Below, piece by piece: positions 2,025-44,097 of a DNA stretch of 64,000 nt. The notes beneath the pieces were generated by a model. That model searched no databases. It saw only the letters and a program-made list of their open reading frames with translations, and was not told the DNA's origin. Each line of letters opens with the position of its first letter. The stretch's first letter is position 1. The DNA lies in the NCBI GenBank assembly GCA_041742135.1, contig JBGSJG010000008.1:32518-96517 (forward strand). The letters run 5' to 3'. Position numbers and translations under genes: made by a program. This DNA is from Patescibacteria group bacterium (GTDB lineage Bacteria; Patescibacteriota; Microgenomatia; UBA8517).

Positions 2025-5000
2025 ATGGCAAAAAAAGCACCCGATTTGGACATTATAGTACCCGTTCTAAACGAAGAAAAATCAGTCGAAAAACTGATTA
2101 TAAGAGTTCATGATGCATTAAAATCTGCTCGTATTGAGTACAGATTGATCTTTGTTGATGATCACTCCTCTGATGCTACTGTAAAAAGGATTTTAGCTTT
2201 AAAGAAAAGTTACCCAATAGTTTTACTAACGAAAAAAGGGGCGCGTGGTAAGGCTTATAGTATTTTAGAAGGGGCGAGAGTCGCAAGCGCGAAAATCGTC
2301 GCGATGCTAGATGGAGATTTACAGTATCCTCCCGAGGCAATCCCCGAGATGTTTTCTCTTACAAAACAGCATGGGGTCGTAGTGGCAAACCGCAAAAAAA
2401 GAAGTACTTCAGCTTTAAGAAAGTTTGTTTCTAAGTTTGCTGCATTCGCGGTTGCAAAAGTGTTATTAGGCTTTAACTGTGATGCTCAGTCCGGTCTTAA
2501 GGTGTTTAAGCGAAAAGTAATCGAGAGTATTACTGAAGAAGACGTCAAGCCATGGGCTCTTGATATGCCACTTCTGCACTCAGCGCTTCAGATGGGTGAA
2601 AGCATCGGCACTGTGGATATTAACTTTAGCGCGCGAAAAAGTGGGCGATCTAAGGTTAATTTGTGGAAGACATCACTAGAAATTATTTTAGTAGCCTTGA
2701 AACTTCGTTTTGGTACATCAAAAGTTGCACACATATCTCCCGTGCGAGGGCACAAATATAAAGGTGCCGGCGTGATTCATAAATCGAAGACATATATTAC
2801 TCACACAAGGTTGCCTCACAGAAAATCTGCACTTTACACACTCGTGGCTTGGCAAAAGTGGTTTATACTCAGCGTATTCGCATTAGTGGGTATCGGACTT
2901 CTTTTGGATAGCTTGACCACGCTAGTGATTTTAATTGCTGGGCTGTCCTTAATATATTTTTCTGACGTGATTTTTAGCTCTTTTGTGCTACTCAAAAGCC
3001 TTCATTTCCCACCTGAGCTCAAATTTACCGACGAAGAATTAGGTGCAATCGACGAGAAGAAATTGCCTCTTTATACAGTTCTTTGCCCACTTTACAAAGA
3101 AAGCTCGGTTCTGCCGAAATTCGTCGAATCTGTTTCAAACCTGGACTGGCCCAAAAACAAGCTTGAAGTATTAATTCTCTTAGAAGAGGATGACGCAGAG
3201 ACACTCGAAGTGGCTAAAAGCCTTAAATTGGCAAAGTACTTTAAGGTAATAGTTGTTCCTGATTCCCAACCTAGAACAAAGCCTAAGGCTTGTAATTTCG
3301 GATTAAGCGAAGCGCGAGGAGAATTTACTGTTGTATACGATGCAGAAGACCGACCTGAGCCCAGCCAACTTAAAAAAGCGTACTTGGGGTTTCTTAAAAG
3401 TAGTAACAACGTAATATGCCTGCAATCTAAGCTCAATTATTATAATCCTGAAGGAAATTTGCTCACCAGGCTATTTACTGCAGAGTATTCGCTTTGGTTT
3501 GACGTTGTATTGCCAGGTCTTCAGTCGATCGACTCAAGTATCCCACTGGGGGGCACGAGCAATCATTTTAGAACTCAAGCACTAGCTGATCTTCACGGAT
3601 GGGACCCATTCAATGTGACAGAAGATTGTGATTTGGGAGTGAGAATTTTTAAGTCAGGTTTCAAAACTGCGATTATTGACTCCATAACTCTCGAAGAAGC
3701 TAATAGCTCAGTCAAAAATTGGATAAGACAGAGATCGAGGTGGATCAAGGGTTACATTCAAACTTACTTAGTCCACATGCGTGACCCCATTGCTTTTTTC
3801 AAGGCTCACGGCATCCATGCGCTAATTTTTCAGCTCATCATCGGGATGCGCATAAGCTTTTTGTTTATTAATCCGTTCTTGTGGTTAATGACGTTTTTAT
3901 ATTTCGCGTTTCGAAGTACTGTTGGCCCAACTATTGAAGCTCTTTACCCACCTGTAATTTTCTATATCGCCTCGTTTTCATTGGTCGTGGGTAACTTTAT
4001 GTACATCTATAACTATATGATTGGTTGCGCCAAAAGAGGCCAGTATGGGTTGATTAAGTATGTACTATTCATTCCTCTGTATTGGTTATTGGCTAGTCGC
4101 GCTGCTCTTAAGGCGATTCATCAACTTGTAGTTAAGCCTCATTTTTGGGAAAAAACTCACCACGGTCTTGATCAGGCAAAGATTGCTGTGCCAACGTTTG
4201 CGTTTCCAAAGGTTTCGGTCGTGGCATCAGGCTTAAGTCTAGTACTGGCCGCGTCTGTGGCAAACCTCTTAAATTTCATTACAAGTGCTTATCTTGGCCG
4301 CGTGCTCACTCCGGACGAATTTGGGCTAGTAGCGCTTATGAGCAGCCTCTTGTTTATTGTTCAGCTTGGCTACGGCGGGATTTTCCAAACCATGTCCCAC
4401 CAAACGGCCTATCTTTCAGGAAAGCACAAAAAACTGATCGGCAACCTCTGGACTAAAGTTCGCCCCAAAGTATTTTTTGCTTCAATCGTCTTCTTTTTGC
4501 TGTGGTTAATGCTAATTCCAGTCATGCCTAACTTCTTTAACTCAGCAACATTCGTACCATTTATTGTCTTCTCGCCAATATGGGTTGTGTTGTTTTTGAA
4601 CTCAGTCGACTCTGGGTTTATTCAAGGGAGTGGGAAATACCATTACCTTGCGGTTATATTTTCGCTCGAAGCATTTTCCAAGCTAGCATTGTCATTTTTA
4701 CTTGTTAACTCAGATCTTCGGGAATGGGTTTATGCTGCCTTGCCGCTTTCGACGTTTGTTAATTTAGCAATCGGCTGGAAGCTGGCCGGGCGTGTCTCGA
4801 AAAACAACCAACTTACAAAACCTCAGGAAGTTAAAACATCCAAAGATCTTACGCTTTCGAGGAAATTTTTAGCTAATTCGCTATTGTCTCAATTTGCCGT
4901 GATTTCTTTTCTTAGTTTGGATCTTTTGTTTGTGAAACATTTTATGTCTGCTCGGGATGCGGGTGTTTACGCATTATTGGCTCTTTCTGGCCGGATGGTT

Positions 5001-6668
5001 TATTTGGCAAGTAGTTTACTGGCACAATTTATACTGCCGATAATTAGCCGCCAGAGTGGTGAGGGCGAATTGCACAAGAACGCATTCAAGTGGTCAATGT
5101 TAGCTGTTGCCGCGCCTGCCTTGTTTGTGTTTTTAATTGTAGGACCGCTTGGTGCATTTACTTTGCCTCTGATGTTTGGGGAGCGTGCGCGAGAGATAAC
5201 TAGCCTCTCAACTACCTTCGCATTTTCAATGGTACTTTTTTCTTTGGCCGCCGGGATAGTTACATTTCACCAAGCTCGCAGACAATACGTTTTTGTGTTG
5301 GCAGGGGTAATCACTGCGGCAACTCAGGCCACACTTTTGCTGTTTTTCCATAGCAACTTGGGGCAAGTAGTTAATTCCATGTTGGCAAGTTCGATAACGT
5401 TTGTATTGCTGTCATCAATTTTTCACTTAAATTCCACAAGGATGGTAATTTTAGGTTCAAATTTTCGAGACATGTGGGATTTGCTTTGGATGAAATTTAA
5501 CGGAAAAACGCCGATTGAAGGCAAGCTTAGAATCTTAATATTAAACTGGCGAGACACAAAGCATGTATGGGCCGGAGGTGCGGAAGTTTATGTTCACGAG
5601 CTTGCCCGAAGATGGGTCAAAGAGGGACATAAAGTTACACTATTTTGTGGAAACGACGGCAAGAGCAAGCGTAATGAAGAAGTCGGTGGAGTGAGAGTTG
5701 TACGCCGGGGAGGATTTTACACAGTTTATCTTTGGGCTTTTTTCTATTATATATTTCGTTTCCGTGGCAGATATGATGTTGTTGTCGATAGCGAAAACGG
5801 TGTGCCGTTTTTTACACCACTTTACTCAAGAGTTCCAAAGATCCTTATCATCTATCATGTACACCAAGATATTTTTCAAAAACACCTGTCTTTTCCACTT
5901 TCAGTTGTGGCGCGATTTCTTGAAGGAAAATTTGTGCCTCTAGTTTATAAAAATGTTCAAATTGTTACCATTTCAAATTCATCCAAAAAAGGCTTGGTAA
6001 AGTTGGGAGTAGGAAATAGTAAAGAGATGTATGTGGTTAATCCCGGAGTTGATTTGAAACTCTTAAAGCCAGGACCCAAAGCGGCCAGCCCTACAATTTC
6101 CTATCTGGGTCGGCTTAAACCATATAAGTCGGTTGATACATTAATTAAAGCCGCGGCACTTCTTGTTAAGGATTTGCCTAGTTTGAAAGTAAAAATTGCT
6201 GGATTTGGAGAAAGTAGATTATCTTTGGAAAAATTGGTTGCAAAGCTTGGGTTGTCTAGTAACATTGAGTTTTTGGGTAAAATTTCTGAAAATCAGAAAG
6301 CGAAACTTTTAGCTCAGTCTTGGGTTTTTGTGCAACCATCTACCATGGAAGGTTGGGGAATTTCGGTGATTGAAGCAAACGCTTGTGGAACTCCCGTCGT
6401 GGCTTCCCGCGTACCCGGGCTTCTTGACTCGGTTAAAAATCCATCTACTGGGTACGTAGTTCAAGCAGGCAACGAGAAGGCTTTTGCCGAGAAAATTAAA
6501 AAAATTCTGACTGACGAGCAACTGAGAAATGAATTTTCGAAAAATTCAATAGAGTGGGCTCAAAGTTTTGACTGGAACGAGAAAGCTTCAGAATTTATGT
6601 TAGTGATTAATAAAACTGTCGCTCGCGCTAACGGCTCAGAATCATACAGTATCGCTGAAACTAATTAA
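2025..6668 (+). CDS. 1547-aa four-module glycan synthase fusion: GT2 (DPM1/GtrB-like) – GT2 with QxxRW – Wzx/MOP-like flippase – GT4
   Basis: Module 1 (nt ~2025-2714): IVPVLNEEKS...LIFVDDHSSD...MLDGDLQYPP. TM segments follow. Module 2 (nt ~3042-3824): DxD-like EEDDAE, DAEDRPE, TEDCDLG and QRSRW (at ~3727). Module 3 (nt ~4216-5450): 10-12 predicted TM helices. Module 4 (nt ~5527-6668): GT4 core with EGWGISVIEANACGTPVVASRVPG. Confidence 0.75.
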   Translation: MAKKAPDLDIIVPVLNEEKSVEKLIIRVHDALKSARIEYRLIFVDDHSSDATVKRILALKKSYPIVLLTKKGARGKAYSILEGARVASAKIVAMLDGDLQYPPEAIPEMFSLTKQHGVVVANRKKRSTSALRKFVSKFAAFAVAKVLLGFNCDAQSGLKVFKRKVIESITEEDVKPWALDMPLLHSALQMGESIGTVDINFSARKSGRSKVNLWKTSLEIILVALKLRFGTSKVAHISPVRGHKYKGAGVIHKSKTYITHTRLPHRKSALYTLVAWQKWFILSVFALVGIGLLLDSLTTLVILIAGLSLIYFSDVIFSSFVLLKSLHFPPELKFTDEELGAIDEKKLPLYTVLCPLYKESSVLPKFVESVSNLDWPKNKLEVLILLEEDDAETLEVAKSLKLAKYFKVIVVPDSQPRTKPKACNFGLSEARGEFTVVYDAEDRPEPSQLKKAYLGFLKSSNNVICLQSKLNYYNPEGNLLTRLFTAEYSLWFDVVLPGLQSIDSSIPLGGTSNHFRTQALADLHGWDPFNVTEDCDLGVRIFKSGFKTAIIDSITLEEANSSVKNWIRQRSRWIKGYIQTYLVHMRDPIAFFKAHGIHALIFQLIIGMRISFLFINPFLWLMTFLYFAFRSTVGPTIEALYPPVIFYIASFSLVVGNFMYIYNYMIGCAKRGQYGLIKYVLFIPLYWLLASRAALKAIHQLVVKPHFWEKTHHGLDQAKIAVPTFAFPKVSVVASGLSLVLAASVANLLNFITSAYLGRVLTPDEFGLVALMSSLLFIVQLGYGGIFQTMSHQTAYLSGKHKKLIGNLWTKVRPKVFFASIVFFLLWLMLIPVMPNFFNSATFVPFIVFSPIWVVLFLNSVDSGFIQGSGKYHYLAVIFSLEAFSKLALSFLLVNSDLREWVYAALPLSTFVNLAIGWKLAGRVSKNNQLTKPQEVKTSKDLTLSRKFLANSLLSQFAVISFLSLDLLFVKHFMSARDAGVYALLALSGRMVYLASSLLAQFILPIISRQSGEGELHKNAFKWSMLAVAAPALFVFLIVGPLGAFTLPLMFGERAREITSLSTTFAFSMVLFSLAAGIVTFHQARRQYVFVLAGVITAATQATLLLFFHSNLGQVVNSMLASSITFVLLSSIFHLNSTRMVILGSNFRDMWDLLWMKFNGKTPIEGKLRILILNWRDTKHVWAGGAEVYVHELARRWVKEGHKVTLFCGNDGKSKRNEEVGGVRVVRRGGFYTVYLWAFFYYIFRFRGRYDVVVDSENGVPFFTPLYSRVPKILIIYHVHQDIFQKHLSFPLSVVARFLEGKFVPLVYKNVQIVTISNSSKKGLVKLGVGNSKEMYVVNPGVDLKLLKPGPKAASPTISYLGRLKPYKSVDTLIKAAALLVKDLPSLKVKIAGFGESRLSLEKLVAKLGLSSNIEFLGKISENQKAKLLAQSWVFVQPSTMEGWGISVIEANACGTPVVASRVPGLLDSVKNPSTGYVVQAGNEKAFAEKIKKILTDEQLRNEFSKNSIEWAQSFDWNEKASEFMLVINKTVARANGSESYSIAETN

Positions 6669-6669
6669 C

Positions 6670-7593
6670 ATGCCCAAAACAAACAAACCAAAAATTACTG
6701 TGGGGATAACTACGTGTTATGGGAAAAGGCAGCTTCTATCTGCGGTTCGTTCTGTTAAAGAATCGGTTGGTGTAGACAATTTTGAAATTATTGTTATTGC
6801 GGACTCCGTGCCATTGACACCATTTGTTAAACAGGGTCTAAAAAAAATGGGGGTAATAATTCGCGAAAACAAGATACCTTCAAGTGCTTTTGCCAAACAA
6901 AAACAGATTTTAAAACTATGTAAAGGAGAAATCATAGTTTTAACTCAGGATGATATGTTATTCGAAAAAGGTGCTTTAAGAGAAATCGCATCAGCGCTAA
7001 GTGTTGACGACGGCGTTACCTTTGTTGGTATCCGGAATGAACCAGTTAGTCCAAAAACACTAGTCGAAAGGGGAATAAATGTTGGCACAAGGCTAAACAA
7101 TTCAATTGGAAAGCTACGGCGAGATGGCGATAACTATCTAGCAATGCTCGGGCGGGTTATGGCCTTTAAAGTAAGCTGGCTTAAAAAACTCAATGTTCAC
7201 TCTGAATCGGTTTCCTTGGATGCATATTTATACCTTGAAAACAAAAAACATGGAGGAAAGTATCGATGTTTGTGGAACACCTGTCTTTGGTTTCGAAACC
7301 CCACGAACATTGATGAGCATATTAGAAAAAGCAGCCGATTTCAAAACTCAAAACATGAAATGCTGTCTTACGGAAAGTTTGCCAACCTTGAAGTCGAATA
7401 TAAAATACCTTTCTGGGTTATTTTAATTGCTGCTACCAAGGAGCTAATGCGCGATCCTATCGGTTTTGTAATTTATGTATATATTTTTGTCTATACGAGA
7501 GTTTATAAGCAAAAACCAGCAGCGTGTCTGACTGCATTGTGGGAAGTGGATCGATCAACCAAGGATATTAGGATGGCCGGAGGTGCAAGATGA
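6670..7593 (+). CDS. Putative GT-A-fold glycosyltransferase with C-terminal TM segment
   Basis: KITVGITTCYGKR...FEIIVIADS...IIVLTQDDMLF resembles a GT2-like DxD arrangement; hydrophobic C-terminus. The start sits 2 nt after the upstream stop. Confidence 0.35.
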   Translation: MPKTNKPKITVGITTCYGKRQLLSAVRSVKESVGVDNFEIIVIADSVPLTPFVKQGLKKMGVIIRENKIPSSAFAKQKQILKLCKGEIIVLTQDDMLFEKGALREIASALSVDDGVTFVGIRNEPVSPKTLVERGINVGTRLNNSIGKLRRDGDNYLAMLGRVMAFKVSWLKKLNVHSESVSLDAYLYLENKKHGGKYRCLWNTCLWFRNPTNIDEHIRKSSRFQNSKHEMLSYGKFANLEVEYKIPFWVILIAATKELMRDPIGFVIYVYIFVYTRVYKQKPAACLTALWEVDRSTKDIRMAGGAR

Positions 7594-9008
7594 AAAAATT
7601 ATTTTCCAAGTATGATTTTTTACCATTTACTTTTTTGGCGGCCGTGTTGGTCTTTTTCCGATTGGGGTTTCATAGTTTCGAGCTAGATGAGGCTTTTAGT
7701 TTGTACATATCAAAAGATTTAGGGCAAATGTTTAAGATTCTTTGGAATAACGAATCAAACATGGGGCTCTATTATTTCTTACTTTATTTCTGGCAATTTT
7801 TAGGAACCAGCGAATTTGCCGTTCGAAGCCTTTCTGCGATATGTGCCATTCTTTCAGTTCCACTCGTTTATAAAATCGCCTCACTTATGTTTGACAGATC
7901 AACCGCTCGAATATCTAGCTTGCTGTTGGCTATTAATATTTATTTTATTTATGTAGGCCAGTTGGCCAGAGGATACTCGCTTTTACTCTTGTTGTCTTTA
8001 GTGTCTACGTATTCATATTTACACTTGAAAAAATACTCTAAAGCTAGGTATGTATATGTTGTATCGCTGATTGCTTCGGTTTTTACACATTATTATGCTA
8101 TCTTGCTATTTATTTCTCATGCTTTGGATGCGTTTACTCGAAAGTTTGCAGGGTCTTTTATTAAAATTGTTTGGCCGGTATTAATCGTTTTGCCTGTGAT
8201 CTTTATAGCTCCTTCATTTTCTAGCGGGCAAATTGACTGGATCGCTGCGCCGACAGTTAAGAATCTAATAGGCACAATATTTGTGCTAGCCGGCGATTTT
8301 CCTCCACTGTTTATAGTTTACGGACTAATTTTTGCTATGAGTTTGCCATTCTTGGTGAGCCGAATTAGGAATGAAAAAATGCAGTTTACATTAATTTGGT
8401 TGACTGGCCCAGTTGTTTTTGCCTTCATTTTTTCAATTTTTGTAAAGCCGATTTTCCAGTCGGTATACTTCATAGTTTGCCTTCCACCATTTTTAATTCT
8501 ATCAGCGCACTTAATCGATCAAATAAAAGTTAAGAAAATTAAGGAGACAATGCTTGCAGCAATTATCATTTTATCTATTGCCAGACTTTATTTGTGGTAT
8601 AGCGGAAATGCACAACACCAATGGATTTTAAGTAACACTTCTGAAGACTGGAGAGCACTGGCTCATTATGTCGATCTCCAGGAAGAGACGGGCGATTCAA
8701 AAATATTTTTTGGATACTACAACAGGCTGCCATACGGACTCTATGCGAAAGATAATGCGAAGTTTGTCGAAATTTCATCTGGACTATATTCACTGGGAGG
8801 CGGATCGAGTTTGCCCTACGCAAATTTGAATTTGATTGCTAGTTTCAATCACTCTCGTGTGTGGGTGATTAAGCGAAAAGCCGACTTAGGTAATTTCAAC
8901 GATCGAGAAATTTTAGACCAAATACATGTGACTTTGATACCAAATTATAATTTGGAAGAGGAGACAAAATTTCCAGAAGTATCTGTTGAACTGTGGAGCA
9001 AAATATGA
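7590..9008 (+). CDS. Multi-pass membrane protein, GT-C-like (PMT/ArnT-related) glycosyltransferase
   Basis: More than 10 hydrophobic helices. Acidic motif in the first extracytoplasmic loop (FELDEAFSLY). ATGA overlap with the upstream gene. Confidence 0.45.
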   Translation: MKKLFSKYDFLPFTFLAAVLVFFRLGFHSFELDEAFSLYISKDLGQMFKILWNNESNMGLYYFLLYFWQFLGTSEFAVRSLSAICAILSVPLVYKIASLMFDRSTARISSLLLAINIYFIYVGQLARGYSLLLLLSLVSTYSYLHLKKYSKARYVYVVSLIASVFTHYYAILLFISHALDAFTRKFAGSFIKIVWPVLIVLPVIFIAPSFSSGQIDWIAAPTVKNLIGTIFVLAGDFPPLFIVYGLIFAMSLPFLVSRIRNEKMQFTLIWLTGPVVFAFIFSIFVKPIFQSVYFIVCLPPFLILSAHLIDQIKVKKIKETMLAAIIILSIARLYLWYSGNAQHQWILSNTSEDWRALAHYVDLQEETGDSKIFFGYYNRLPYGLYAKDNAKFVEISSGLYSLGGGSSLPYANLNLIASFNHSRVWVIKRKADLGNFNDREILDQIHVTLIPNYNLEEETKFPEVSVELWSKI

Positions 9009-9898
9009 AAAATAAGCCATCGTTAACTGTCGCAATTCCAGCATACAACGAGGAAAAAAATATCGTGCGTTTACTTAGCGCTTTAGTGAATCAAACTGCT
9101 AAAAATTACAAATTAGACAGCATTTCTGTTTACTCGGATGGTAGTAGTGACAATACGGTTGCTTTAGTCAAAACGAACTTCCCAAACGTATTTGTATATA
9201 ATTTTCGCAAGAACTTGGGAAAAAATAGGCGTGTCAACCAAATGATGAAAAACAATAAAAGCGACATTCTGGTCCAGGTGGATGCTGATATCGAAATTTT
9301 AGACAACCGCGTTCTTGATCGTTTGGTTTGTGCGTTTGATGATAATCCAAGGATTGGTTTGGTTTGCGCGTACCATAAAGCTTTGGAACCACGAACACTA
9401 TTTGGCCGGCTTTCGTACTTTGGGTTTTTGGTATGGGACGAGGCACGAAGTAGGCTTGGGGAAAAAGGCATTCGCTATTATTGCGAGGGCGGCATGCGAG
9501 CATTTTCGCGAAGCTTTACAAAAGTGTTTCGTCTTCCTTTGGATCGCCATGTTGGTGAAGATAGTTACAGTTTCTATTTCGCTGTTGCCAACGGATTTGT
9601 GGTAGTTGCTGCTGAAAAAGCAGTTGTTTATATAAAACTTGCCGACAATGTACACGACTACGTACACCAGATGAAGCGGTTTTTAAAAGACCCGCAAATG
9701 GTTCGGGAGACTTTTGACAAGAATCTTGAAGCCAAGTACGAGATTATGTCTTCCGGTATAAAATTCAAAGCTCTGCTAAATCAATTAGCGAAAGATCCGA
9801 TTTCGGGAGTAGGATATTTCATTTTGCAATCTGCTACAAAATTAATGGCAATCAACTATAGTCCCGAAAAGAAATGGCAACCAATTGAAAGAAAATAA
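8993..9898 (+). CDS. GT2 family glycosyltransferase
   Basis: LTVAIPAYNEEKNIVRLLSAL...YSDGSSDNT...VQVDADIEIL; typical GT-A N-terminus with DxD. Confidence 0.7.
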   Translation: MEQNMKNKPSLTVAIPAYNEEKNIVRLLSALVNQTAKNYKLDSISVYSDGSSDNTVALVKTNFPNVFVYNFRKNLGKNRRVNQMMKNNKSDILVQVDADIEILDNRVLDRLVCAFDDNPRIGLVCAYHKALEPRTLFGRLSYFGFLVWDEARSRLGEKGIRYYCEGGMRAFSRSFTKVFRLPLDRHVGEDSYSFYFAVANGFVVVAAEKAVVYIKLADNVHDYVHQMKRFLKDPQMVRETFDKNLEAKYEIMSSGIKFKALLNQLAKDPISGVGYFILQSATKLMAINYSPEKKWQPIERK

Positions 9899-11774
9899 AA
9901 TGAACAACATGTCATACAGATTGTTTCTGACTGTCTTAAAAATACTAGGCTCAGTGCGAAATTTTGGCCTGAATCAACACAGAGGTCGTAAGTTGATTTT
10001 GTGTTATCACGACATCAGTAATAAAAAGTGGGCTTTTTCAGTTACGAAAAAAGAATTTGAAAAACAAATGAAATATTTGGCTGATAATTTTTCAGTCGTG
10101 AGTCTTGATGAGATTTTAAAAAATGACAAACCAAAAACTGACCAGATAGCAATAACTTTTGATGATGGTTACGTGGGTGTTATTAAACATGCTTTTCCGG
10201 TTATGAAAAAATTAGGAATAGTAGGGACTGTATTTGCAGTAGGGAAGACTGACATAAGCACTCAAACTGGCTATAAGGGCGAGCTATTAAGTAGCCACCA
10301 GCTTCGACGTCTTAAAAAAGCTGGCTGGGAAATTGGCTGGCATAGCAGATCTCACCAGAATCTTAATTTACTGGGCAGACGTGATTTACTTAGAGAAATC
10401 GGCACTAAGTCAAAATCTGTGCGCTACTTTGCGTATCCGTTTGGGTCGTATGATTTTTATGTATCGGAGATGGTTAAAAAAATCGGTTATACAAGCGCTT
10501 TTAGCGTCGACGGGAAAGCTGTAAATACTGATGGTTTTAGTGTCTCACGAATTACTGTTAGTAGTGGTATTAAGGGGATCGGGTTTGCCGGCCTGCTATG
10601 CCCGGCTGGAGTTTTGTTTAATGGCTTGTTTACTTCTTTTTGGCGAAAGCTGGATAATTTTAGAAACACAAGCTGTGGCACGTCCATTGTGATTTCAAGT
10701 TATGAAGATGTTAAGAACCCTAATTATGGTGGTGGAGGTGCTCGCGCTATACACGAAATGGCAAAAAGAATTTCACTAAACTTTAGAGTTAAAGTAATAA
10801 GTTGGAATCACTCGGGAGTTAAGAAGGAATTAATTGACAATGTCTACTACGAGCATATAGGATTTAAACGAATTAATCCAAAACTTGCACAGGTTGTTTT
10901 TGCAACACTGTTGCCATTTTTGGTAGTAACACAGCGGTTTGCGGTGTGGATTGAAAGTTTTGGTCCACCGTTCACTACCGCCTTTTTACCACTTTTTGGA
11001 CGTAAAAACATTGTTGGCGTGATGCACATGTTTGCAGCGGCTGAAATGAAGAGAAAATATAAATTGCCGTTCGGGTTAATTGAAAAGATGGGACTCCGGA
11101 TGTATAAGAACATTATTGCCACGAGCAGCGCTTTTGAGCATAAAATTCACCAAATTTCTCCGAATTCAAAGATCGCGATAATCGAAAACGGAGTAGAAAA
11201 GGTAAAGGCTCACACCGGAAAAAGAAAGAAGCAAATCTTATTTTTAGGCAGACTAGAAGTGGAACAAAAGGGCCTTGATCTTCTTGTGGAAGGCTTTAAA
11301 AAGTTTTCTAATACAAAGCAGGGGGAGGGCTACAAATTAATTTTTGCTGGCAACGGTACTCCAAATGAATTTAATAAACTAAAGCACTTGGTGCGCGAGG
11401 CGGGAATTAGAAAATCTGTTATTTTTGCAGGGAGGGTCGAAGGTAAACAAAAAGAGAAATTGTTTGAATCATCTAAGTGCATGATAGTATCCTCAAGATT
11501 TGAAACCTTCGGCATGGTCGCTTTGGAAGCTATGGCATATGGCCTACCTGTTATTGCATTTGATATCGACGGGCTTACGTGGACACCTAAAGACGCGGTG
11601 GTTAAAGTACCACCTTTTGACACAGACGCCTTAGCTCAAGCGGTCGAAAACATTGTTGATGAAAGTATGGCCAAAGTTGTAACTCAAAAAGGGATCAATT
11701 TTGCGAGAAAATTTACTTGGGAGAAAATTGCGATTAAGTATGAATCATATTTGGGTGAGTTCGTTTATCAGTAA
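9885..11774 (+). CDS. Fusion: NodB-type polysaccharide deacetylase (N-terminal) + GT4 glycosyltransferase (C-terminal)
   Basis: N-terminal IAITFDDGYVGVIKHAFPVMKKLGIVGTVFAV (NodB motif 1, nt ~10147) and WEIGWHSRSHQNL. C-terminal GT4 core FETFGMVALEAMAYGLPVIAFDIDGL. Confidence 0.7.
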   Translation: MKENKMNNMSYRLFLTVLKILGSVRNFGLNQHRGRKLILCYHDISNKKWAFSVTKKEFEKQMKYLADNFSVVSLDEILKNDKPKTDQIAITFDDGYVGVIKHAFPVMKKLGIVGTVFAVGKTDISTQTGYKGELLSSHQLRRLKKAGWEIGWHSRSHQNLNLLGRRDLLREIGTKSKSVRYFAYPFGSYDFYVSEMVKKIGYTSAFSVDGKAVNTDGFSVSRITVSSGIKGIGFAGLLCPAGVLFNGLFTSFWRKLDNFRNTSCGTSIVISSYEDVKNPNYGGGGARAIHEMAKRISLNFRVKVISWNHSGVKKELIDNVYYEHIGFKRINPKLAQVVFATLLPFLVVTQRFAVWIESFGPPFTTAFLPLFGRKNIVGVMHMFAAAEMKRKYKLPFGLIEKMGLRMYKNIIATSSAFEHKIHQISPNSKIAIIENGVEKVKAHTGKRKKQILFLGRLEVEQKGLDLLVEGFKKFSNTKQGEGYKLIFAGNGTPNEFNKLKHLVREAGIRKSVIFAGRVEGKQKEKLFESSKCMIVSSRFETFGMVALEAMAYGLPVIAFDIDGLTWTPKDAVVKVPPFDTDALAQAVENIVDESMAKVVTQKGINFARKFTWEKIAIKYESYLGEFVYQ

Positions 11775-11778
11775 AACT

Positions 11779-12525
11779 ATGCTGAAAATGTTTCAAATAC
11801 TAAAAAACAAAAGGATTTACATCATTTCTCCCCATCAGGACGATGCAGTACTTTCGTGTGGTGGACTCATGGCGCAGCTTTCAGGCAAAGCTGATATTAC
11901 TGTCGTTAATTTATTCACAAACGGAAACAAAGGACCTTACACCCTTTCTGCCAAAAGGTTTTTGAATATGTTAAAAGAACCTGATGCCGTTAGGCTTTTT
12001 GAGAAACGCAAACTTGAAGATAAAACGGTTTTGACTAAACTGAAGGCAAAAATTATTAATTTGGATCTAGAAGATGCTATGTTCAGACGCAAGAATGTAA
12101 GTGTTATTGGTAAGATAGTGCCTGAATTTGATCATGTATACCCCACCTACAGATGGCATTTTTCAAAAGGGATTTCTAAAATTGATTACGCATTAGCAGA
12201 TGTGGAAGAAAGGCTTAAAAAAATAGTTAAAAGTGATGATATTGTGCTAGCGCCTTACGGTATCGGCGGACACGTTGACCACATGATTGCCAGAAGAGTG
12301 TGCGAAAAAAATTTCAAAAGTGTGATTCTTTACTCAGACTTTCCATACAACGTTCGCACTAGTTACTTCGGTACCAAGGGTAGGAATTTCGACAGATTTA
12401 TTCTTAAGCCAGATTTATCAGCAAAGGAAAAGCTTGTAAAGATGTATGAAACACAATTTTTGGGATTGTTTCCTGACACGACATTACCGTCACACGAGGA
12501 GATTTATTTTATTAAGAAAAAATAA
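11779..12525 (+). CDS. LmbE/PIG-L family N-acetylglucosaminyl deacetylase
   Basis: IYIISPHQDDAVLSCGG (PIG-L signature) and HVDH. The start is reassigned to the ATG at 11779, just after the upstream stop at 11774; the track ORF starts at 11701 inside the upstream gene. Confidence 0.7.
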   Translation: MLKMFQILKNKRIYIISPHQDDAVLSCGGLMAQLSGKADITVVNLFTNGNKGPYTLSAKRFLNMLKEPDAVRLFEKRKLEDKTVLTKLKAKIINLDLEDAMFRRKNVSVIGKIVPEFDHVYPTYRWHFSKGISKIDYALADVEERLKKIVKSDDIVLAPYGIGGHVDHMIARRVCEKNFKSVILYSDFPYNVRTSYFGTKGRNFDRFILKPDLSAKEKLVKMYETQFLGLFPDTTLPSHEEIYFIKKK

Positions 12526-14009
12526 TGTTAAAAATTTTTGAAAAATACGCCTTCGCAATTTTTGTAGTTGTAGCAGTGATGCTTTATGGGTTGACCATTC
12601 GCGGCGCTGTCGGCGTACCAGATGAGCGTGATGTGACGTATGGGCAAATAGACTCTGGCGAGCCGTTCGAGACTTCTCAGGAAAGATCTAGATATGCGAT
12701 TATTTTAGCTCTTTACCACCATGGAGCATTTAATGTTGATGCATTTCCTCAAATGGGAACTCCGGACGTTGGTTTTATAAACGGACATTACTTTTCGTTT
12801 TTTCCGCCCACCGTTTCTATTTTTGCCTTGCCGCTTTATCACATAGGTCTAAAAATTGGGGCCACTCAGTTGATGGTGTTTCTTATTTCAACAGTTTTTG
12901 CTTTAGCTACAGGTGTATTGATCTATAAATACGCCCAGAAATTAGGCCTATCAAATATAAAGTCTGTTTTAATTGCTTACTCCTTTCTGTTTGCTACAAA
13001 TGCATGGGGATATTCGGTGACACTTTATGCACATTTGATTTCAGCGTTTTTCGTTTTAGCTGGTGTTTATGTCTTGCAATTTTCAAAAGAAGGGGCGTTG
13101 AAGGGTGCATTAATTTGGTTGTTTTACGCCTTCGCTGTTTTTGTTGATTTTCCTAACATTTTTATTTATTTCCCTATCGCATTGATTTATAGCTTGAGGG
13201 GGATATCTATTCGGGAAGCAAACAATAAGCTTAAAATTCGTATCAGCTTTATTCAAATTTTAACACCGCTAATTTTCTTTGCCGGCGTAGTTTTGTATGG
13301 ATACTATAATTATACTCAGTTCGGAAGCCCTACAATTTTAAGCAATAACCTGCCTCGCGTGCGAAATCTCAATATAATAGCCGAAGCAGCTCCGGAGCTT
13401 GGGCGTAATGTGACAGGGGCGTTAAACACCAGAATGTTGTTGAATGGCTATTACACTTTTATCGCAAGCATAGATCGAGGAGCGTTGTTTTATACGCCGA
13501 TAGTACTATTATGTTTGTTCGGATTTATCAAACTCAGAAAAAAGTACTCTGAACATATTCAGGTTATGAGTGCAGTGCCGCTTGTGTGCCTAACTTTGTA
13601 TTCAATGTTTTCAGACCCATATGGCGGTTGGGCATTCGGCTCACGCTACATGATCGTAGCTTACCCATATCTATTGCTTTTGGGTGGCGCTTGGTTTGCT
13701 AATTCTAAAAGCATACTAACAAAAATTATCTTTTCTATTGTGTTTATTTATAGCGTAGGGGTTTCTCTTTTGGCGCCTTTAACTACAAACGTTATTCCAC
13801 CACAAGTTGAAGCAAATAGTTTAGGGCTTTCTTATACTTATGCAGTTAACATGAGAATGCTTCTTGATAATAAGTTAAATTCGTTTGTTTATAACTCATT
13901 TTTAGAAGAAAAATATTCAGCTCTAGAGTACTACGCCGCTATTTTTGCTACAGTTGCAATTTTTGGATTGTTATTGATATGGGTAAAAGGAGATAAAAAA
14001 TGGAAATAA
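12525..14009 (+). CDS. Multi-pass integral membrane protein, possible GT-C glycosyltransferase (unclassified)
   Basis: About 12 hydrophobic segments. Acidic loop motif GVPDERDVTYG after TM1. ATGA-type overlap with the upstream gene. Confidence 0.35.
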   Translation: MLKIFEKYAFAIFVVVAVMLYGLTIRGAVGVPDERDVTYGQIDSGEPFETSQERSRYAIILALYHHGAFNVDAFPQMGTPDVGFINGHYFSFFPPTVSIFALPLYHIGLKIGATQLMVFLISTVFALATGVLIYKYAQKLGLSNIKSVLIAYSFLFATNAWGYSVTLYAHLISAFFVLAGVYVLQFSKEGALKGALIWLFYAFAVFVDFPNIFIYFPIALIYSLRGISIREANNKLKIRISFIQILTPLIFFAGVVLYGYYNYTQFGSPTILSNNLPRVRNLNIIAEAAPELGRNVTGALNTRMLLNGYYTFIASIDRGALFYTPIVLLCLFGFIKLRKKYSEHIQVMSAVPLVCLTLYSMFSDPYGGWAFGSRYMIVAYPYLLLLGGAWFANSKSILTKIIFSIVFIYSVGVSLLAPLTTNVIPPQVEANSLGLSYTYAVNMRMLLDNKLNSFVYNSFLEEKYSALEYYAAIFATVAIFGLLLIWVKGDKKWK

Positions 14010-15604
14010 GTATTTCGAAAACAAGAATAAATAACTTACTAAAGATATTTGAAAAAAGGGCAGCCTTATATATCGTTATAGTGCTCGGACTCCTCGCCAT
14101 CTTTGCTTGGTACGGACTGTATGAAAACGGCTTAGGCCTTGCCTATAACGATGCCAGAAGCCATTTGAGTATTGGGCGCCGTGTGGTGGAAGGGTTGAAG
14201 CCAGGTTTGGCACAAATTGGTTCAGTTTGGCTCCCCTTGACTCACTTACTCATGATACCTACGGTGTGGAACGATTTTATGTGGCATTCTGGTCTTTCCG
14301 GAGCTATACAATCAATGTTTTCCTTTACAGCCACAGGAGTTTTAGTCTATCTTTTTCTCAAAGAACTTAAGGTTGGTTTACTGGCTAGGATCTTCGGGGT
14401 GTTTTTGTTTGTTGCCAATCTTAATGTTTTGTATTTACAGTCTACCGCGATGACAGAACTGTTACTTCTCGCGACCATGACTGCTGGGGCTTACTATCTA
14501 CTTGTGTGGGCGAAGGGAGATAATTTAGTAGACATCCTCAAGTCAGCAGGCTTTATAATGCTTTCAACTTTAATTCGATACGATGGTTGGTTTTTGATTT
14601 TTTACTCCACGATTGTTGTTGCTTTTCTTGCGTTTCGTAAAACAGGTTATAAAGGCATGGAGGGGATAGCTATTTTATTTGCAACCCTTGGGGGAGTTGG
14701 AATATTTCTGTGGGTTATATGGAATCTGTTAATATTCGGCGACCCACTATACTTTGCTTTCGGCCCTTTTTCCGCCCACGCCCAACAATCTCAATTATTG
14801 GCTGCCGGAGAGTTGCCAACCAAAGGAAATTTGCTTCTTTCAATTAAAGTATATGTTTACGCATTCTTTTACAATTCATACACTTTGCCTGCGATATTTG
14901 GGCTTATTGGTGCGTTCGCACTCTGGTTTAATCGCGAAGTTTCATCAAGGGTAAAAATCGCATCTACCGCTCTGATGGCGCCTTTTATGTTCAATGTGCT
15001 AGCCTTGTATTTGGGACATTCTGTTCTTTTCGTTCAGGGCATTTCCGGAAACACTTGGTTTAATGTGCGCTATGGGATTATGTTAGCTCCGTCCGTCGCC
15101 ATTTTTGCAGCCTACTTGGCGGATTCATTAAAGCGTTTCCGTTATGTAATCATCGGTGTTTGTCTTTTTGTTCTCTTCTTTGCTTTTGGCGCAGGAGATG
15201 CGGTTACAATCGACGATGCTACTGTTGGCTCAAGCCAGAAAAACGTATCAGAGGTTTCAGGGTGGCTTAATAAAAATATCAAAGACAAAGAAGGCTTTGT
15301 GCTGATTTCAGCTGCTTCTCACGATGCGATAATTTTTTCCTCTGGTCTTCCTATGAAGCGATTTATTCACGAAGGAACAGGTGCTTATTGGGAAAGCGCA
15401 GTAGGTTCTCCGGACCGATGGGCTCGTTGGATAGTTATGCGAACACATGACCAAAACGATCTCGTGTTTAAGCTAATCCAAAAAGAAGCTCTAGAAAAAT
15501 ATTACGTACTAGTAGATCATTATCCGTTCGCAGATATTTATGAGTTGAAAGAAGAAAAATTACCCGAACTTATAACCGAGCCCATTTTTGGTAAGCAAAA
15601 ATAA
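14000..15604 (+). CDS. Multi-pass integral membrane protein with C-terminal soluble domain, possible GT-C glycosyltransferase (unclassified)
   Basis: About 11 TM segments. Loop motif LAYNDARSHL after TM1. C-terminal ~130 aa is hydrophilic. Confidence 0.35.
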   Translation: MEISISKTRINNLLKIFEKRAALYIVIVLGLLAIFAWYGLYENGLGLAYNDARSHLSIGRRVVEGLKPGLAQIGSVWLPLTHLLMIPTVWNDFMWHSGLSGAIQSMFSFTATGVLVYLFLKELKVGLLARIFGVFLFVANLNVLYLQSTAMTELLLLATMTAGAYYLLVWAKGDNLVDILKSAGFIMLSTLIRYDGWFLIFYSTIVVAFLAFRKTGYKGMEGIAILFATLGGVGIFLWVIWNLLIFGDPLYFAFGPFSAHAQQSQLLAAGELPTKGNLLLSIKVYVYAFFYNSYTLPAIFGLIGAFALWFNREVSSRVKIASTALMAPFMFNVLALYLGHSVLFVQGISGNTWFNVRYGIMLAPSVAIFAAYLADSLKRFRYVIIGVCLFVLFFAFGAGDAVTIDDATVGSSQKNVSEVSGWLNKNIKDKEGFVLISAASHDAIIFSSGLPMKRFIHEGTGAYWESAVGSPDRWARWIVMRTHDQNDLVFKLIQKEALEKYYVLVDHYPFADIYELKEEKLPELITEPIFGKQK

Positions 15605-15618
15605 AGGTACAATCTTAT

Positions 15619-16842
15619 ATGAAGAAAATTATATTTAGTTTAATACTTGTATTGCTAAGTTTAGCAACAGCCTCTGGTGTTTACGCTAGCGACAATTGGT
15701 GGCAGATTCAATCTGTTGATACCATGAAATACTCGCGTGATTTGGCAGGGGAGAAATTGAATGACCCTTCATTTGACTCAGAAATTGATTTTCAGGTAAA
15801 AAACATCAAAGAGCTTGGTGCAACACATGTCGCCATCGGCACACCGTACGACTCTGAATTCACGCCATTTTTGGAGCGCTGGGTTTTGGCCGCAAGGAAA
15901 TACGATTTAAAAGTCTGGTTTCGAGGCAATTTTTCTGGCTGGGAAGGTTGGTTTGGAAGAAGAAAAATTACCCCCGAAGAGCACACCGAGCGTTTAGGTG
16001 AGCTTATATTGGATAACCCTGATTTGTTTGAAGATGGAGATATTTTTTCAAGCTGCCCCGAGTGTGAAAATGGAGCCATGGGAGACCCTCGAAACACTGG
16101 AAAGCTTACGGAGTTTAGGAATTTCCTAATTACTCAGAAGTCTGTGGCAGATGATGCATTTTCCAGAATTGGCAAAGACGTCTCAGCTGGTTACTTTTCA
16201 ATGAATGGTGACGTAGCCGAGCTTGTAATGGACCCAACAACTACCAAAGCCTTGGGGGGTGTTGTCGTGGTAGATCATTATGTAGCAACGCCGAGGCAAT
16301 TAGTTGATGATATCCAAAGGTACAGAGAAAAATCGCAAGGGCAGATTATGCTCGGGGAATTCGGTGCACCAATTCCGGACATTCACGGGCAAATATCGCT
16401 TGAACAGCAAGCTGCTTGGGTGCGAGAAGCCTTGACTTTGTTAGCTCAAGAAGATGGTGTTGTGGGAGTTAACTACTGGGTTTTTATGGGGGGGTCAACG
16501 GGTTTATGGAGCGAAAATGGCAATAGTAGGCCAGTAGCAAATAGCCTGTCTGATTTTTATAAGCCTTCGAGCTTTAGCGTAAAAGTTTCAGACGAGCTAG
16601 GTAGGGGGATTAAAGAAGCTAAAGTTCAAGTAGGGCAAAACACATACAGTCCCGCTAGCAATGGTGTAATTAGGGCTCTTAAAGTACCCGGAGTTGAGGA
16701 GATGACTGTATATGCAAAAGGGTATAAAAGCTATACGCAAAAAATTATTAATCCCGAAAACACCGATCAAATAGTACTTAGTTCTGAACGAAGCAACTTA
16801 TTGCTCAGAATCATTAAATTTTTGCGCAGTATCTTCATTTAG
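15619..16842 (+). CDS. Secreted putative glycoside hydrolase (TIM-barrel, GH5-like) with C-terminal CarboxypepD_reg-like beta domain
   Basis: Signal peptide MKKIIFSLILVLLSLATASGVYA. Nucleophile-like MLGEFGAP motif. C-terminal KVSDELGRGIKEAKVQVGQNTY... Confidence 0.4.
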   Translation: MKKIIFSLILVLLSLATASGVYASDNWWQIQSVDTMKYSRDLAGEKLNDPSFDSEIDFQVKNIKELGATHVAIGTPYDSEFTPFLERWVLAARKYDLKVWFRGNFSGWEGWFGRRKITPEEHTERLGELILDNPDLFEDGDIFSSCPECENGAMGDPRNTGKLTEFRNFLITQKSVADDAFSRIGKDVSAGYFSMNGDVAELVMDPTTTKALGGVVVVDHYVATPRQLVDDIQRYREKSQGQIMLGEFGAPIPDIHGQISLEQQAAWVREALTLLAQEDGVVGVNYWVFMGGSTGLWSENGNSRPVANSLSDFYKPSSFSVKVSDELGRGIKEAKVQVGQNTYSPASNGVIRALKVPGVEEMTVYAKGYKSYTQKIINPENTDQIVLSSERSNLLLRIIKFLRSIFI

Positions 16843-16844
16843 AG

Positions 16845-16873
16845 TTGAAAAATTCTCTGAAAAGTTATATACT
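16845..16873 (+). promoter_or_regulatory. Sigma70-like promoter TTGAAA-17bp-TATACT upstream of the sortase-substrate gene
   Basis: TTGAAA at 16845-16850 and TATACT at 16868-16873, about 35 nt before the ATG at 16909. Confidence 0.45.
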
Positions 16874-16908
16874 CCTATAACTTATAACTATATTCTAAAT
16901 ATATCTGT

Positions 16909-17490
16909 ATGAATAAATTATTTTTGATATTGATAAGTATTTCAGTACTTCTTGTAAGTGCTTCACCTATTTTGGCGATTGATGCTGCGCCTAACTTTCC
17001 CTCGTGTGTAAACCCTCAAGGACAGCTGAAAGTTAGATACGAGAATGGAAAACATGCTGTTATTGGTCGTTCAAATTTAATCTCTGGTAAGGACGAAGTT
17101 TATTGGCTTGATAATGGAAATTTACTTCAGTGCTTATGTGAAGAGAATGGTGAGGGAACGCAAACAAATTGGTGGAAGGTAACTGGAATAACTCAAGAAG
17201 AAATTAACGCTTACAAATCGCAAGGCTGGATTTTTGTCCCAACTGGGTCAGATTGGGGTTTAATTAGCGATCCATATTTGGCAAAAAACTTTACCTACGG
17301 ATGTAAAGGCAATGATGGTGGATCAGGCGGAGGAGATTCAGGCATTGGTGGTGGTGGGACAAGCTCTGTTTTGGGTTTGGCTCAAACAGGAAACAATGCC
17401 ACGTACGTTGCTCTGTTTTCTTTGGGGATTAGCTTTGTTTTGGGTGGGGTTTTACTTCGTAGAAAGCGCCATGCGTCAGACCGCGTCTAA
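16909..17490 (+). CDS. Small secreted sortase-substrate protein (LAQTG sorting signal)
   Basis: N-terminal signal peptide. Gly/Ser-rich linker. C-terminal LAQTG, then hydrophobic stretch ATYVALFSLGISFVLGGVLL, then basic tail RRKRH: a classic tripartite cell-wall sorting signal. Confidence 0.65.
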   Translation: MNKLFLILISISVLLVSASPILAIDAAPNFPSCVNPQGQLKVRYENGKHAVIGRSNLISGKDEVYWLDNGNLLQCLCEENGEGTQTNWWKVTGITQEEINAYKSQGWIFVPTGSDWGLISDPYLAKNFTYGCKGNDGGSGGGDSGIGGGGTSSVLGLAQTGNNATYVALFSLGISFVLGGVLLRRKRHASDRV

Positions 17491-27015: not shown

Positions 27016-27044
27016 GCTGATATAATTTCTTATAAACTATTCGC

Positions 27045-41407: not shown

Positions 41408-41411
41408 TTAA

Positions 41412-44096: not shown

Positions 44097-44097
44097 A

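Follow-up and report, generated by a model that had tools for sequence, protein, structure and literature searches.

A 64,000-nucleotide stretch of DNA from a Patescibacteria group bacterium (NCBI GenBank assembly GCA_041742135.1, contig JBGSJG010000008.1, positions 32,518 to 96,517 of the forward strand; this whole stretch is called the window below) carries at 2025-18007 a co-directional operon of about 16 kb, in which two carbohydrate deacetylases of different families are encoded together with several glycosyltransferases. On balance, we favour the reading that the tailoring core of this operon consists of two successive couples, each of which would add an N-acetylhexosamine (HexNAc) and then remove its N-acetyl group, at the cytoplasmic face of the membrane and on an intermediate that is most likely lipid-linked. 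The genes concerned encode a glycosyltransferase of family 2 (GT2), a fusion of a NodB-type deacetylase domain (carbohydrate esterase family 4, CE4) with a glycosyltransferase of family 4 (GT4), and a deacetylase of the LmbE/PIG-L type. A preliminary description, made from the sequence alone, had likened the fusion gene and the LmbE gene to the enzyme pairs MshA/MshB, BshA/BshB and PIG-A/PIG-L. The elements of the proposed core are as follows (aa, amino acids; AF2, AlphaFold2; GlcNAc, N-acetylglucosamine).

8993-9898, + strand: soluble NodC/PgaC-like GT2, 301 aa, proposed HexNAc transferase of the first couple (Pfam Glycos_transf_2, E 3e-21)
9909-10574, + strand: NodB/CE4 domain of the fusion, PgaB/IcaB-like, catalytic His relocated N-terminally, in CYH (Pfam E 1.6e-19)
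10575-10664, + strand: helical linker of the fusion, aa 223-252, moderately hydrophobic and amphipathic (AF2 helices 223-230 and 232-252)
10683-11774, + strand: GT4 domain of the fusion, GT-B fold, retaining type with an E-x7-E motif, proposed GlcNAc transferase of the second couple (Pfam E 6.9e-31)
11779-12525, + strand: LmbE/PIG-L zinc deacetylase, 248 aa, Orf2*/Dbv21-like (Pfam E 1e-16)

Both genes of the original comparison lie on the + strand, the open reading frame (ORF) of LmbE beginning 4 nt past that of the fusion. The latter offers candidate starts at 9885 (TTG), 9900 (ATG) and 9909 (ATG) and has its stop at 11774; a public protein identical to the fusion product, with a length of 621 aa, starts at 9909. 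Pfam analysis placed Polysacc_deac_1 at aa 77-199 of the fusion (70.5 bits versus a cut-off of 23.1), Glyco_transf_4 at aa 278-433 (E 1.3e-7) and Glycos_transf_1 at aa 439-589, and matched the LmbE product to PIG-L with 62.1 bits versus a cut-off of 28.2, all Pfam scores of the two proteins being well over the curated cut-offs. The NodB domain displays TFDDGY (10155-10172) and HSRSH (10341-10355), as well as an N-terminal CYHD (10002-10013), YFAYPFG (10425-10445) and SRITVS; the E-x7-E motif of the GT4, SRFETFGMVALEAMAYG, is at 11493-11543; and the LmbE protein carries SPHQDDAVLSCGG at 11827-11865 and HVDH at 12271-12282. These domain matches and motif positions agree with what had been read from the letters, namely a NodB-type domain joined to a GT4 and followed by an LmbE gene with its signature and HVDH. 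The metal-binding residues of both deacetylases are conserved as well, so that no loss of zinc ligands was seen: S17, P18, H19, D21, D22, H165, D167 and H168 of LmbE are invariant in 28 family members, the Streptomyces ones included, and correspond by homology to the zinc ligands and general base of MshB and Orf2*, while D88, D89, H148, H152, Y179, P180 and R217 of NodB (D-D, H-x3-H, Y-P and R) are invariant across 8 orthologues, and the CYH histidine is kept in all 7 aligned sequences that cover its region. The three enzyme domains are real, with intact catalytic and metal-binding residues, and look active.

Related loci were collected by exact-protein look-ups (L001-L005) and by a GT4-alignment scan of species genomes of the Genome Taxonomy Database (L007-L086); gene counts in operons refer to 44 well-covered loci, and GT4-LmbE adjacency to 61 loci whose sequence extends 1.2 kb or more downstream. 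LmbE is located directly downstream of, or is fused to, the orthologous GT4 in 45 of these 61 loci, and, at or above 35% identity, almost every GT4 orthologue has an LmbE partner. Single chains of GT4 and LmbE occur in five proteins (P0074, P0094, P0113, P0114 and P0120) and at four loci (L002, L026, L031 and L050). Given this adjacency and these single-chain fusions, GT4 and LmbE are a genuine functional couple, and this part of the preliminary description stands, but its assignment of the couple to the mycothiol, bacillithiol and GPI (glycosylphosphatidylinositol) families fails on family cut-offs and on genomic context.

Indeed, the GT4 scores far below the equivalog cut-offs of the families in question (MshA 65.7 versus 462.5; BshA 59.9 versus 273.7; GlcN_PG_synth, that is GpgS, 53.9 versus 480), the MshA and BshA profiles align only to its C-terminal nucleotide-binding half, and the PIGA N-terminal domain (PF08288) was not among its Pfam matches at E≤0.01. 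Another GT4 domain of the operon, at the C-terminus of the giant protein described below, scores above the fusion GT4 against MshA (117.9 bits). When the GT4 model was compared with known structures in Foldseek, the UDP-GlcNAc enzymes BshA and MshA came first at E ~1e-17, the GT4 structures being matched at TMt 0.75-0.81. Neither the cut-offs nor the Pfam scan supports membership of the GT4 in an MshA, BshA or PIG-A pathway. The LmbE protein is no closer to the thiol pathways, with 16.2 bits for BshB1 versus a cut-off of 182.5 and no MshB family match in the NCBIfam cut-off scan. Its AF2 model is confident (predicted local distance difference test, pLDDT, 94.8) and retrieved the teicoplanin/A40926 deacetylases Orf2*/Dbv21 at Foldseek ranks 1-8 (E 1e-15 to 4e-14, TM 0.64-0.69, 21-23% identity), followed at greater distance by chitobiose deacetylase (2e-7), BshB (4e-6) and MshB (7e-6), so that Orf2*/Dbv21 stand nearer than BshB/MshB by about 8 orders of magnitude in E-value. 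The same two enzymes are the best matches in a phmmer search against the PDB (E 5e-7 to 1e-6), with residues 12-226, almost the full length, aligned. LmbE is accordingly closest to Orf2*/Dbv21, and its equation with MshB, BshB or PIG-L finds no support.

The neighbours of LmbE in other lineages suggest what may become of the freed amine. A gene for Acetyltransf_6 (PF13480, GNAT-type) is present in 18 of 34 LmbE-positive operons versus none of 10 LmbE-negative ones, LmbE~Acetyltransf_6 fusions were found in L020, L036, L048 and L069, and PF13480 was matched by all 27 Acetyltransf_6 members tested. This supports a "deacetylate, then re-acylate" logic in the relatives, where the amine released by LmbE would be acylated again by Acetyltransf_6, and it lends substance to the earlier suggestion that the free-amine product could be further acylated. 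Comparison of these acyltransferases with the FemAB type gave a sub-threshold match to FemX (6snr, E 0.19) and one weak FemAB_like match. In the operon of the window, no Acetyltransf_6 or other N-acyltransferase was found in Pfam scans.

The conserved partner of NodB is the upstream GT2 at 8993-9898, and not the GT4 to which NodB is fused. The best NCBIfam matches of this GT2 are all GlcNAc transferases, namely PgaC_IcaA (58.7 bits), NodC (31.7 bits) and HpnI (23.1 bits). In a neighbour-joining tree of 54 GT2_301-like domains, it forms a tight clade with the proteins from L001, L024, L048 and L039; members of this clade directly adjoin NodB in five out of five loci, which are exactly the loci with both deacetylases. 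Other NodB genes likewise adjoin GT2 genes, and the GT2 genes that precede the GT4 or are fused to it fall in other clades. NodB is present in 12 of the 44 well-covered loci and accompanies LmbE in about five of the 44, in line with the remark in the preliminary description that finding both in one module is unusual. In variants that lack LmbE, NodB was observed with an N-terminal domain of ~350 aa that is weakly similar to kinases of the APH(3')/choline-kinase type (24.6 bits); these APH-like kinase~NodB fusions lie at L055 12890-16225, L059 14570-16387, L061 6999-10382, L064 9066-10880 and L068 14534-16237 and 18065-21073. Several of them also join a membrane glycosyltransferase of the GT-C type (TM494, see below), giving kinase~NodB~GT-C proteins of ~1100 aa.

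Among NCBIfam families, the NodB domain matched PgaB (58.3 bits), IcaB (51.8 bits) and HfsH (29.9 bits) best, each far below its equivalog cut-off (321.9, 248.35 and 400, respectively), with NodB itself at 21 versus 240; in the PDB it matched IcaB (4wcj, E 5e-10). Together with the N-terminal histidine, these matches mark it as a CE4 domain of the permuted PgaB/IcaB type. An identity as an ArnD-like deformylase was considered and rejected, as no ArnD family match was obtained. No signal peptide or transmembrane segment precedes NodB in any architecture examined; moreover, in L047 NodB sits after a cytoplasmic GT4, fused to the C-terminus of the giant protein, and in L055, L061 and L068 it is fused ahead of the first transmembrane segment of the TM494 GT-C. 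For these reasons the NodB domain is concluded to be cytoplasmic, as are rhizobial NodB and HfsH. The N-terminal and linker helices of the fusion are amphipathic and basic, not membrane-spanning, and the domain is probably membrane-peripheral. We also considered aa 226-244 of the linker as a transmembrane helix that would place NodB outside the cell, and dismissed it on account of the missing N-terminal signal, the polar and basic character of the homologous segment and the cytoplasmic fusions found elsewhere.

The join between NodB and GT4 is authentic. Two more proteins of the same architecture come from other sources, P0002 from a Logan assembly (55% identity) and P0003 from ENA (42% identity), and AF2 modelled the fusion as one continuous two-domain protein with a mean pLDDT of 89 and a predicted TM-score (pTM) of 0.85. 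Three independent sequences and a confident model rule out an assembly artefact. When 1.84 billion cluster representatives were searched exhaustively with HMMER, only P0001 and P0003 emerged as full-length matches to the fusion query, P0002 belonging to the 50% cluster of P0001. The remaining top matches cover the GT4 part alone, and the GT4 family numbers ~400 representatives at E≤1e-30, many of them ~630 aa in length with the GT4 N-terminal. The NodB~GT4 join is therefore very rare, and GT2~GT4 and GT4~LmbE joins are common. In L001, L022 and L048, NodB is a gene of its own (~270 aa) that directly precedes the GT4 gene and overlaps it; the linker helix (aa 223-252) matches the C-terminal tail of stand-alone NodB orthologues, and in L022, L032 and L039 a free-standing NodB protein ends in the homologous segment, which is polar and basic there. 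By these alignments, the fusion is a recent closing of the junction between two neighbouring genes. It joins the second enzyme of the first couple to the first enzyme of the second and is no evidence that NodB acts on the product of the GT4; its meaning differs from what the preliminary description assumed, and the conserved neighbour of NodB, in all five loci of the window GT2 clade, points elsewhere.

The core is embedded in an operon whose genes overlap or lie at most 14 nt apart from 2025 to 16842. Its other genes, and the convergent gene at its end, are listed here.

2025-6668, + strand: giant protein, 1547 aa, with an ArnC/PgfS-like GT2, a processive PgaC/IcaA-like GT2, a MOP-flippase-type domain (Polysacc_synt) and a C-terminal GT4 (Pfam)
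6670-7593, + strand: accessory GT2, 307 aa, lineage-specific (weak Pfam GT2 matches)
7590-9008, + strand: GT-C glycosyltransferase of the PMT_2 type, 472 aa (Pfam PMT_2, E 8e-8)
12525-14009, + strand: TM494, divergent GT-C membrane glycosyltransferase, 494 aa (NCBIfam LA_3751/3752, 55.8 bits; hhalign)
14000-15604, + strand: TM534, divergent GT-C membrane protein, 534 aa (hhalign to PMT_2 paralogues, 96.1%)
15619-16842, + strand: Sec407, secreted or membrane-anchored protein, 407 aa (N-terminal hydrophobic segment; C-terminal CarboxypepD_reg-like beta-sandwich)
16909-17490, + strand: small secreted Cys-containing protein with a LAQTG sorting signal, a transmembrane segment and a basic tail (TIGR01167 LPXTG_anchor, 16.9 bits versus a cut-off of 15.9)
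17471-18007, + strand: sortase, last gene of the operon (Pfam Sortase, E 2.3e-19; likely ATG at 17471, read from the sequence)
17988-18644, - strand: trmD, convergent, ending the operon (Pfam E 1e-56)

The giant protein, product of the first gene, has TED and QRSRW motifs in its second GT2, and its NCBIfam matches are all under the cut-offs (PgfS 75.8, ArnC 72.8, PgaC_IcaA 96 and MshA 117.9 bits). A homologue of the accessory GT2 was found among the loci only as an LmbE~GT2 fusion in L034, and an orthologue of the PMT_2-type GT-C occupies the same position in L001. TM494 has no Pfam match and aligns with the PMT_2 paralogues of the window at an hhalign probability of 96.8%. Conservation within the operon is highest for TM534 (67% mean column identity over 32 orthologues), which belongs to no Pfam family, matches LA_3751/3752 weakly, has invariant motifs that include YNDARSH and RYDGWF, and is far more conserved across the classes of the candidate phyla radiation (CPR, Patescibacteria) than its neighbours in the operon. 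The main domain of Sec407 gave no Pfam, NCBIfam or PDB match, also when searched as a 33-sequence profile, and its orthologues share many invariant Trp, Glu and Asp residues, for instance in NFSGWEGWFG and CPECENG. For TM534, TM494 and Sec407, neither sequence nor profile searches of the PDB gave anything useful. The LAxTG motif is kept in orthologues of the 16909-17490 protein. Promoter and terminator scans showed no enrichment over shuffled sequence, and no tRNA or Rfam family was found in scans of the window. Directly upstream of the operon, 17-1938 encodes a sugar-nucleotide 4,6-dehydratase, a NUDIX hydrolase and an RmlD-like reductase, an arrangement conserved in the closest relative (L087, 1-2285), an indication that the pathway also receives a 6-deoxyhexose.

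The operon recurs with a recognisable order, namely the giant synthase, (GT2), GT4, LmbE, (accessory genes), TM494, TM534, Sec407 and (LAxTG protein and sortase), in genomes labelled as Shapiro-, Woese-, Ames-, Levy-, Dojka-, Moran-, Azam- and Doudnabacteria, Parcubacteria and Saccharibacteria/Saccharimonadales; the nearest relatives of the window are Shapirobacteria-like Microgenomates. The giant protein is found in 41, TM534 in 39 and Sec407 in 35 of the 44 well-covered loci, and a sortase within 12 kb of the GT4 in 18 of them. Further joins between its enzymes comprise GT2~GT4 (8 loci), LmbE~GT2 (2 loci), NodB~GT-C (3 loci) and giant~NodB (1 locus). An LAxTG protein and a sortase also close the operon in L001, L009-L011, L015, L018, L024, L027, L033, L035, L039, L043, L048, L056, L064 and L065. 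Operons of the CPR type, with 40-70% protein identity to named CPR genomes, are also present in third-party-annotation metagenome-assembled genomes titled "uncultured Gammaproteobacteria", "Pseudomonadales" or "Bdellovibrionales" (L010, L015, L019, L022, L027, L028, L030, L037, L038, L040, L049, L050, L055, L058, L061, L065 and L068); the taxonomic labels of these genomes are probably wrong. A Streptomyces cluster (L006, CP137573.1, 1249123-1267926) encodes two GT2, a GT4, a 480-aa protein, a 635-aa GT4, a PIG-L that is 38% identical to the LmbE of the window, a PMT-type GT-C, a GT4-like protein, a GH42-like counterpart of Sec407, whose GH42 match is weak, and an Acetyltransf_6. It adjoins a GGDEF/EAL gene and may be a distant counterpart of the CPR operon.

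Combining these observations, we propose the following course. In the first couple, the soluble NodC/PgaC-like GT2 (8993-9898) would add a HexNAc, which the NodB domain (9909-10574) would de-N-acetylate; in the second, the retaining GT4 domain (10683-11774) would add a GlcNAc, presumably from uridine diphosphate (UDP)-GlcNAc, to be de-N-acetylated by LmbE (11779-12525). One polypeptide would thus carry the second step of the first couple and the first step of the second, and its amphipathic helices would probably keep it at the membrane. What results would be an intermediate with free-amine hexosamines, most likely attached to a lipid. Many other lineages would re-acylate the LmbE-generated amine by means of Acetyltransf_6; in the lineage of the window, since its operon lacks this gene, the amines probably stay free and cationic. 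Flipping of the intermediate may fall to the MOP-type domain of the giant protein, after which the three GT-C enzymes may extend or transfer it outside the cell, using polyprenyl-phosphate sugars made by the ArnC/PgfS-like GT2. A bolder extension would make the glucosamine (GlcN) amines, free here and acylated or aminoacylated elsewhere, the attachment point for the LAxTG protein through the co-encoded sortase. If true, this would amount to a sortase-based analogue of GPI anchoring, with GlcNAc transfer, de-N-acetylation by a PIG-L homologue, extracytoplasmic glycosylation by GT-C enzymes and finally transpeptidation of a C-terminus onto the glycan. It would fit the LAxTG protein and sortase with which the operon closes in the window and in many relatives, but we consider it very unlikely: the sortase is not specifically tied to LmbE (3 of 10 LmbE-less versus 15 of 34 LmbE-positive operons), and it is simpler to assume a protein anchored to peptidoglycan in the ordinary way that is no more than co-regulated or glycosylated.

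Several observations count against two successive couples on a lipid carrier. The neighbourhood maps rest on our own ORF calling and on blastp labels with window proteins, not on curated annotation. In Foldseek, PimA, GlgM, SPS and WlaC trail BshA and MshA by only 2-3 logs in E-value at equal TM-scores, and by sequence SPS and GlgA outrank MshA and BshA; because neither ranking singles out MshA/BshA, the presumed use of UDP-GlcNAc by the GT4 rests mainly on its partnership with LmbE. No initiating phosphoglycosyl transferase was seen among the scanned proteins of the operon and the window, which makes the lipid carrier a guess. The latter finding, as far as Pfam scans of the operon go, also suits an alternative in which GT4 and LmbE make a glucosaminyl glycolipid, with GlcNAc transferred onto a lipid head group and de-N-acetylated to give either a cationic end product or an anchor or primer for a lipoglycan built by the GT-C enzymes. 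Such a route would be akin to PIG-A/PIG-L, GpgS/GpgD or HexS/HexD. Cytoplasmic GT4, deacetylase and flippase would then follow the logic of gpgSDF and hexSDF, the operon does have a MOP flippase domain and three GT-C enzymes, and PimA ranks among the structures close to the GT4; in mycobacterial lipomannan, PimA acts first and GT-C enzymes follow, a logic that such a glycolipid would resemble. We regard this as doubtful but worth keeping in sight, given that the GlcN_PG_synth score is far from its cut-off and the PIGA domain is not matched, and that the frequent fusions of GT2 to GT4 and of LmbE to GT2 or acyltransferase point to a unit of several sugars and not to the modification of one head group.

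NodB might instead be the PgaB/IcaB equivalent of a system resembling poly-N-acetylglucosamine (PNAG), in which the giant protein makes poly-GlcNAc, NodB partly de-N-acetylates it, and GT4 and LmbE serve a separate purpose. The second GT2 of the giant protein, with its TED and QRSRW motifs, is indeed best matched by PgaC_IcaA, NodB by the PgaB and IcaB profiles and the IcaB structure 4wcj, and the secreted Sec407 is encoded downstream, where such systems often have a hydrolase (its Streptomyces counterpart being weakly GH42). PgaB and IcaB, however, act outside the cytoplasm, and the NodB of the window lacks a signal peptide and is fused to cytoplasmic domains; all scores are far under the equivalog cut-offs, most giant-synthase operons have no NodB, and NodB tracks the small GT2 and not the giant protein, so we find this arrangement unlikely. 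The distribution of NodB, which is enriched where LmbE is absent (7 of 10 versus 5 of 34), also weighs against two couples, since it could mean that the two enzymes are alternatives for one step, redundant on the same GlcNAc, with the lineage of the window keeping both. Yet the LmbE-less operons have a more distant GT4 subclade (30-34% identity), their NodB brings its own extra GT2 genes and a kinase-like domain, indicative of a different module and not of a swap, and in the five loci with both deacetylases NodB always adjoins its own GT2 clade. We rate such redundancy as quite unlikely. A role of the pair in making a low-molecular-weight thiol of the mycothiol/bacillithiol type, or some other soluble GlcN glycoside of that kind, deserves practically no credence. 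BshA and MshA do head the structural matches of the GT4, and the GT4-LmbE logic is common to those pathways, but the genes are translationally coupled within a membrane glycan operon with GT-C enzymes, flippase and sortase, no cysteine ligase appeared among those proteins of the window that were scanned, and LmbE has no MshB match and is nearest to Orf2*/Dbv21. We rejected a thiol pathway on this context and on the family scores far below the MshA, BshA and BshB cut-offs.

The ATP-grasp gene at 61505, which had been put forward as a possible ligase for the GT4/LmbE product, was discarded in that role, being 49 kb away in a separate subcluster of HAD, ATP-grasp and NodB+DUF3473 genes, absent from the related operons and never accompanying the module in other genomes. 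The subcluster (58988-63528) comprises GT2, GT4, a HAD hydrolase (60912), the ATP-grasp and a second NodB deacetylase with DUF3473 (62674), and looks like an independent module. It belongs to the rest of the window (19220-64000), one huge co-directional glycosylation island with at least 15 more GT-C-type membrane proteins of 425-567 aa (PMT_2, GT87, PTPS_related or unassigned), among whose genes DPM1-like GT2 genes (~235-240 aa) are interleaved at 22793, 29524 and 31759. The island also contains a GT2-GtrA fusion (19220), a MOP flippase (37261), a GT2-membrane synthase (45000) and several GT2/GT4 genes (40508-45003 and 58988-60915), and, in its middle, a tandem of three paralogous DHH/DHHA1 phosphoesterase genes (25054-28052; 327, 325 and 335 aa).

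The formation and structure of the envelope in Patescibacteria "remain unclear" according to a genome paper of 2017 (PMC5220378), and our literature searches found no description of this operon. Its occurrence in common in Saccharimonadia, Microgenomates, Dojkabacteria and Parcubacteria points to a widespread CPR surface glycoconjugate whose amino sugars are free or re-acylated, and which could plausibly help to determine how these episymbionts are charged at the surface and attach to their hosts. The comparative map provides testable pairings, namely GT2-NodB, GT4-LmbE, LmbE-Acetyltransf_6 and NodB-GT-C. The main value of the operon is what it may reveal about the Patescibacteria envelope, the GT4/LmbE finding by itself being more modest.

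Compared with known systems, the GT4 and LmbE of the window share the two-step logic and the two superfamilies of MshA/MshB, BshA/BshB and PIG-A/PIG-L, with the zinc ligands conserved in LmbE, but differ from them in context, which is an operon of GT-C enzymes, synthase and sortase and not thiol or GPI biosynthesis. Orf2* and Dbv21, the deacetylases of the teicoplanin/A40926 pseudoaglycones, have the SPHxDD and HxDH zinc site in common with the LmbE of the window. In their pathway the freed GlcN amine is then N-acylated (Orf11*/Dbv8), a sequence of steps paralleled by the pairing and fusions of LmbE with Acetyltransf_6 in the CPR relatives. The teicoplanin N-acyltransferase is of another family than the CPR Acetyltransf_6, and none was found in the window; likewise, the substrate in the teicoplanin pathway is a glycopeptide aglycone to which a GT1 has added the sugar, whereas the partner of LmbE here is a GT4 in a membrane glycan operon.

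The first couple resembles NodC/NodB/NodA, PgaC/PgaB and IcaA/IcaB in combining a GT2 (D, DxD, ED and Q-x-x-R-(W/F)) with a CE4 deacetylase of the NodB fold, and the catalytic His of PgaB/IcaB has the same position, in the N-terminal CYH, as that of the NodB domain of the window. PgaB and IcaB are extracytoplasmic, however, whereas this NodB is predicted to be cytoplasmic; the GT2 is small and soluble, unlike the membrane synthase of the NodC, PgaC and IcaA systems; and the NodB~GT4 fusion is found in none of the Nod, Pga and Ica systems. Precedents for a glycosyltransferase acting with a CE4-type or related deacetylase on lipids are GpgS/GpgD/GpgF of P. aeruginosa, where the GT4 GpgS, a deacetylase and a flippase make GlcN-phosphatidylglycerol, a cationic amino-sugar lipid (PMC12713373), and HexS/HexD/HexF of C. 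difficile, where a glycosyltransferase, a deacetylase and a flippase make an aminohexosyl glycolipid (PMC10128005). The gpg and hex systems are three-gene operons for a single head-group modification, in contrast to the two proposed couples within an 11-gene operon with GT-C enzymes. HfsH, the CE4 deacetylase of the Caulobacter holdfast oligosaccharide, to which the NodB of the window has a weak but specific NCBIfam match, acts within lipid-linked polysaccharide assembly and tunes polymer charge and adhesion (see also PMC8449245). HfsH is part of a Gram-negative, Wzy-dependent pathway and stands free of any glycosyltransferase domain, whereas the NodB of the window is joined to a GT4. What is known, then, is the logic of GlcNAc transfer followed by de-N-acetylation; what is new here are the GT4 and LmbE families, their conserved CPR operon context, the double couple and the rare fusion.

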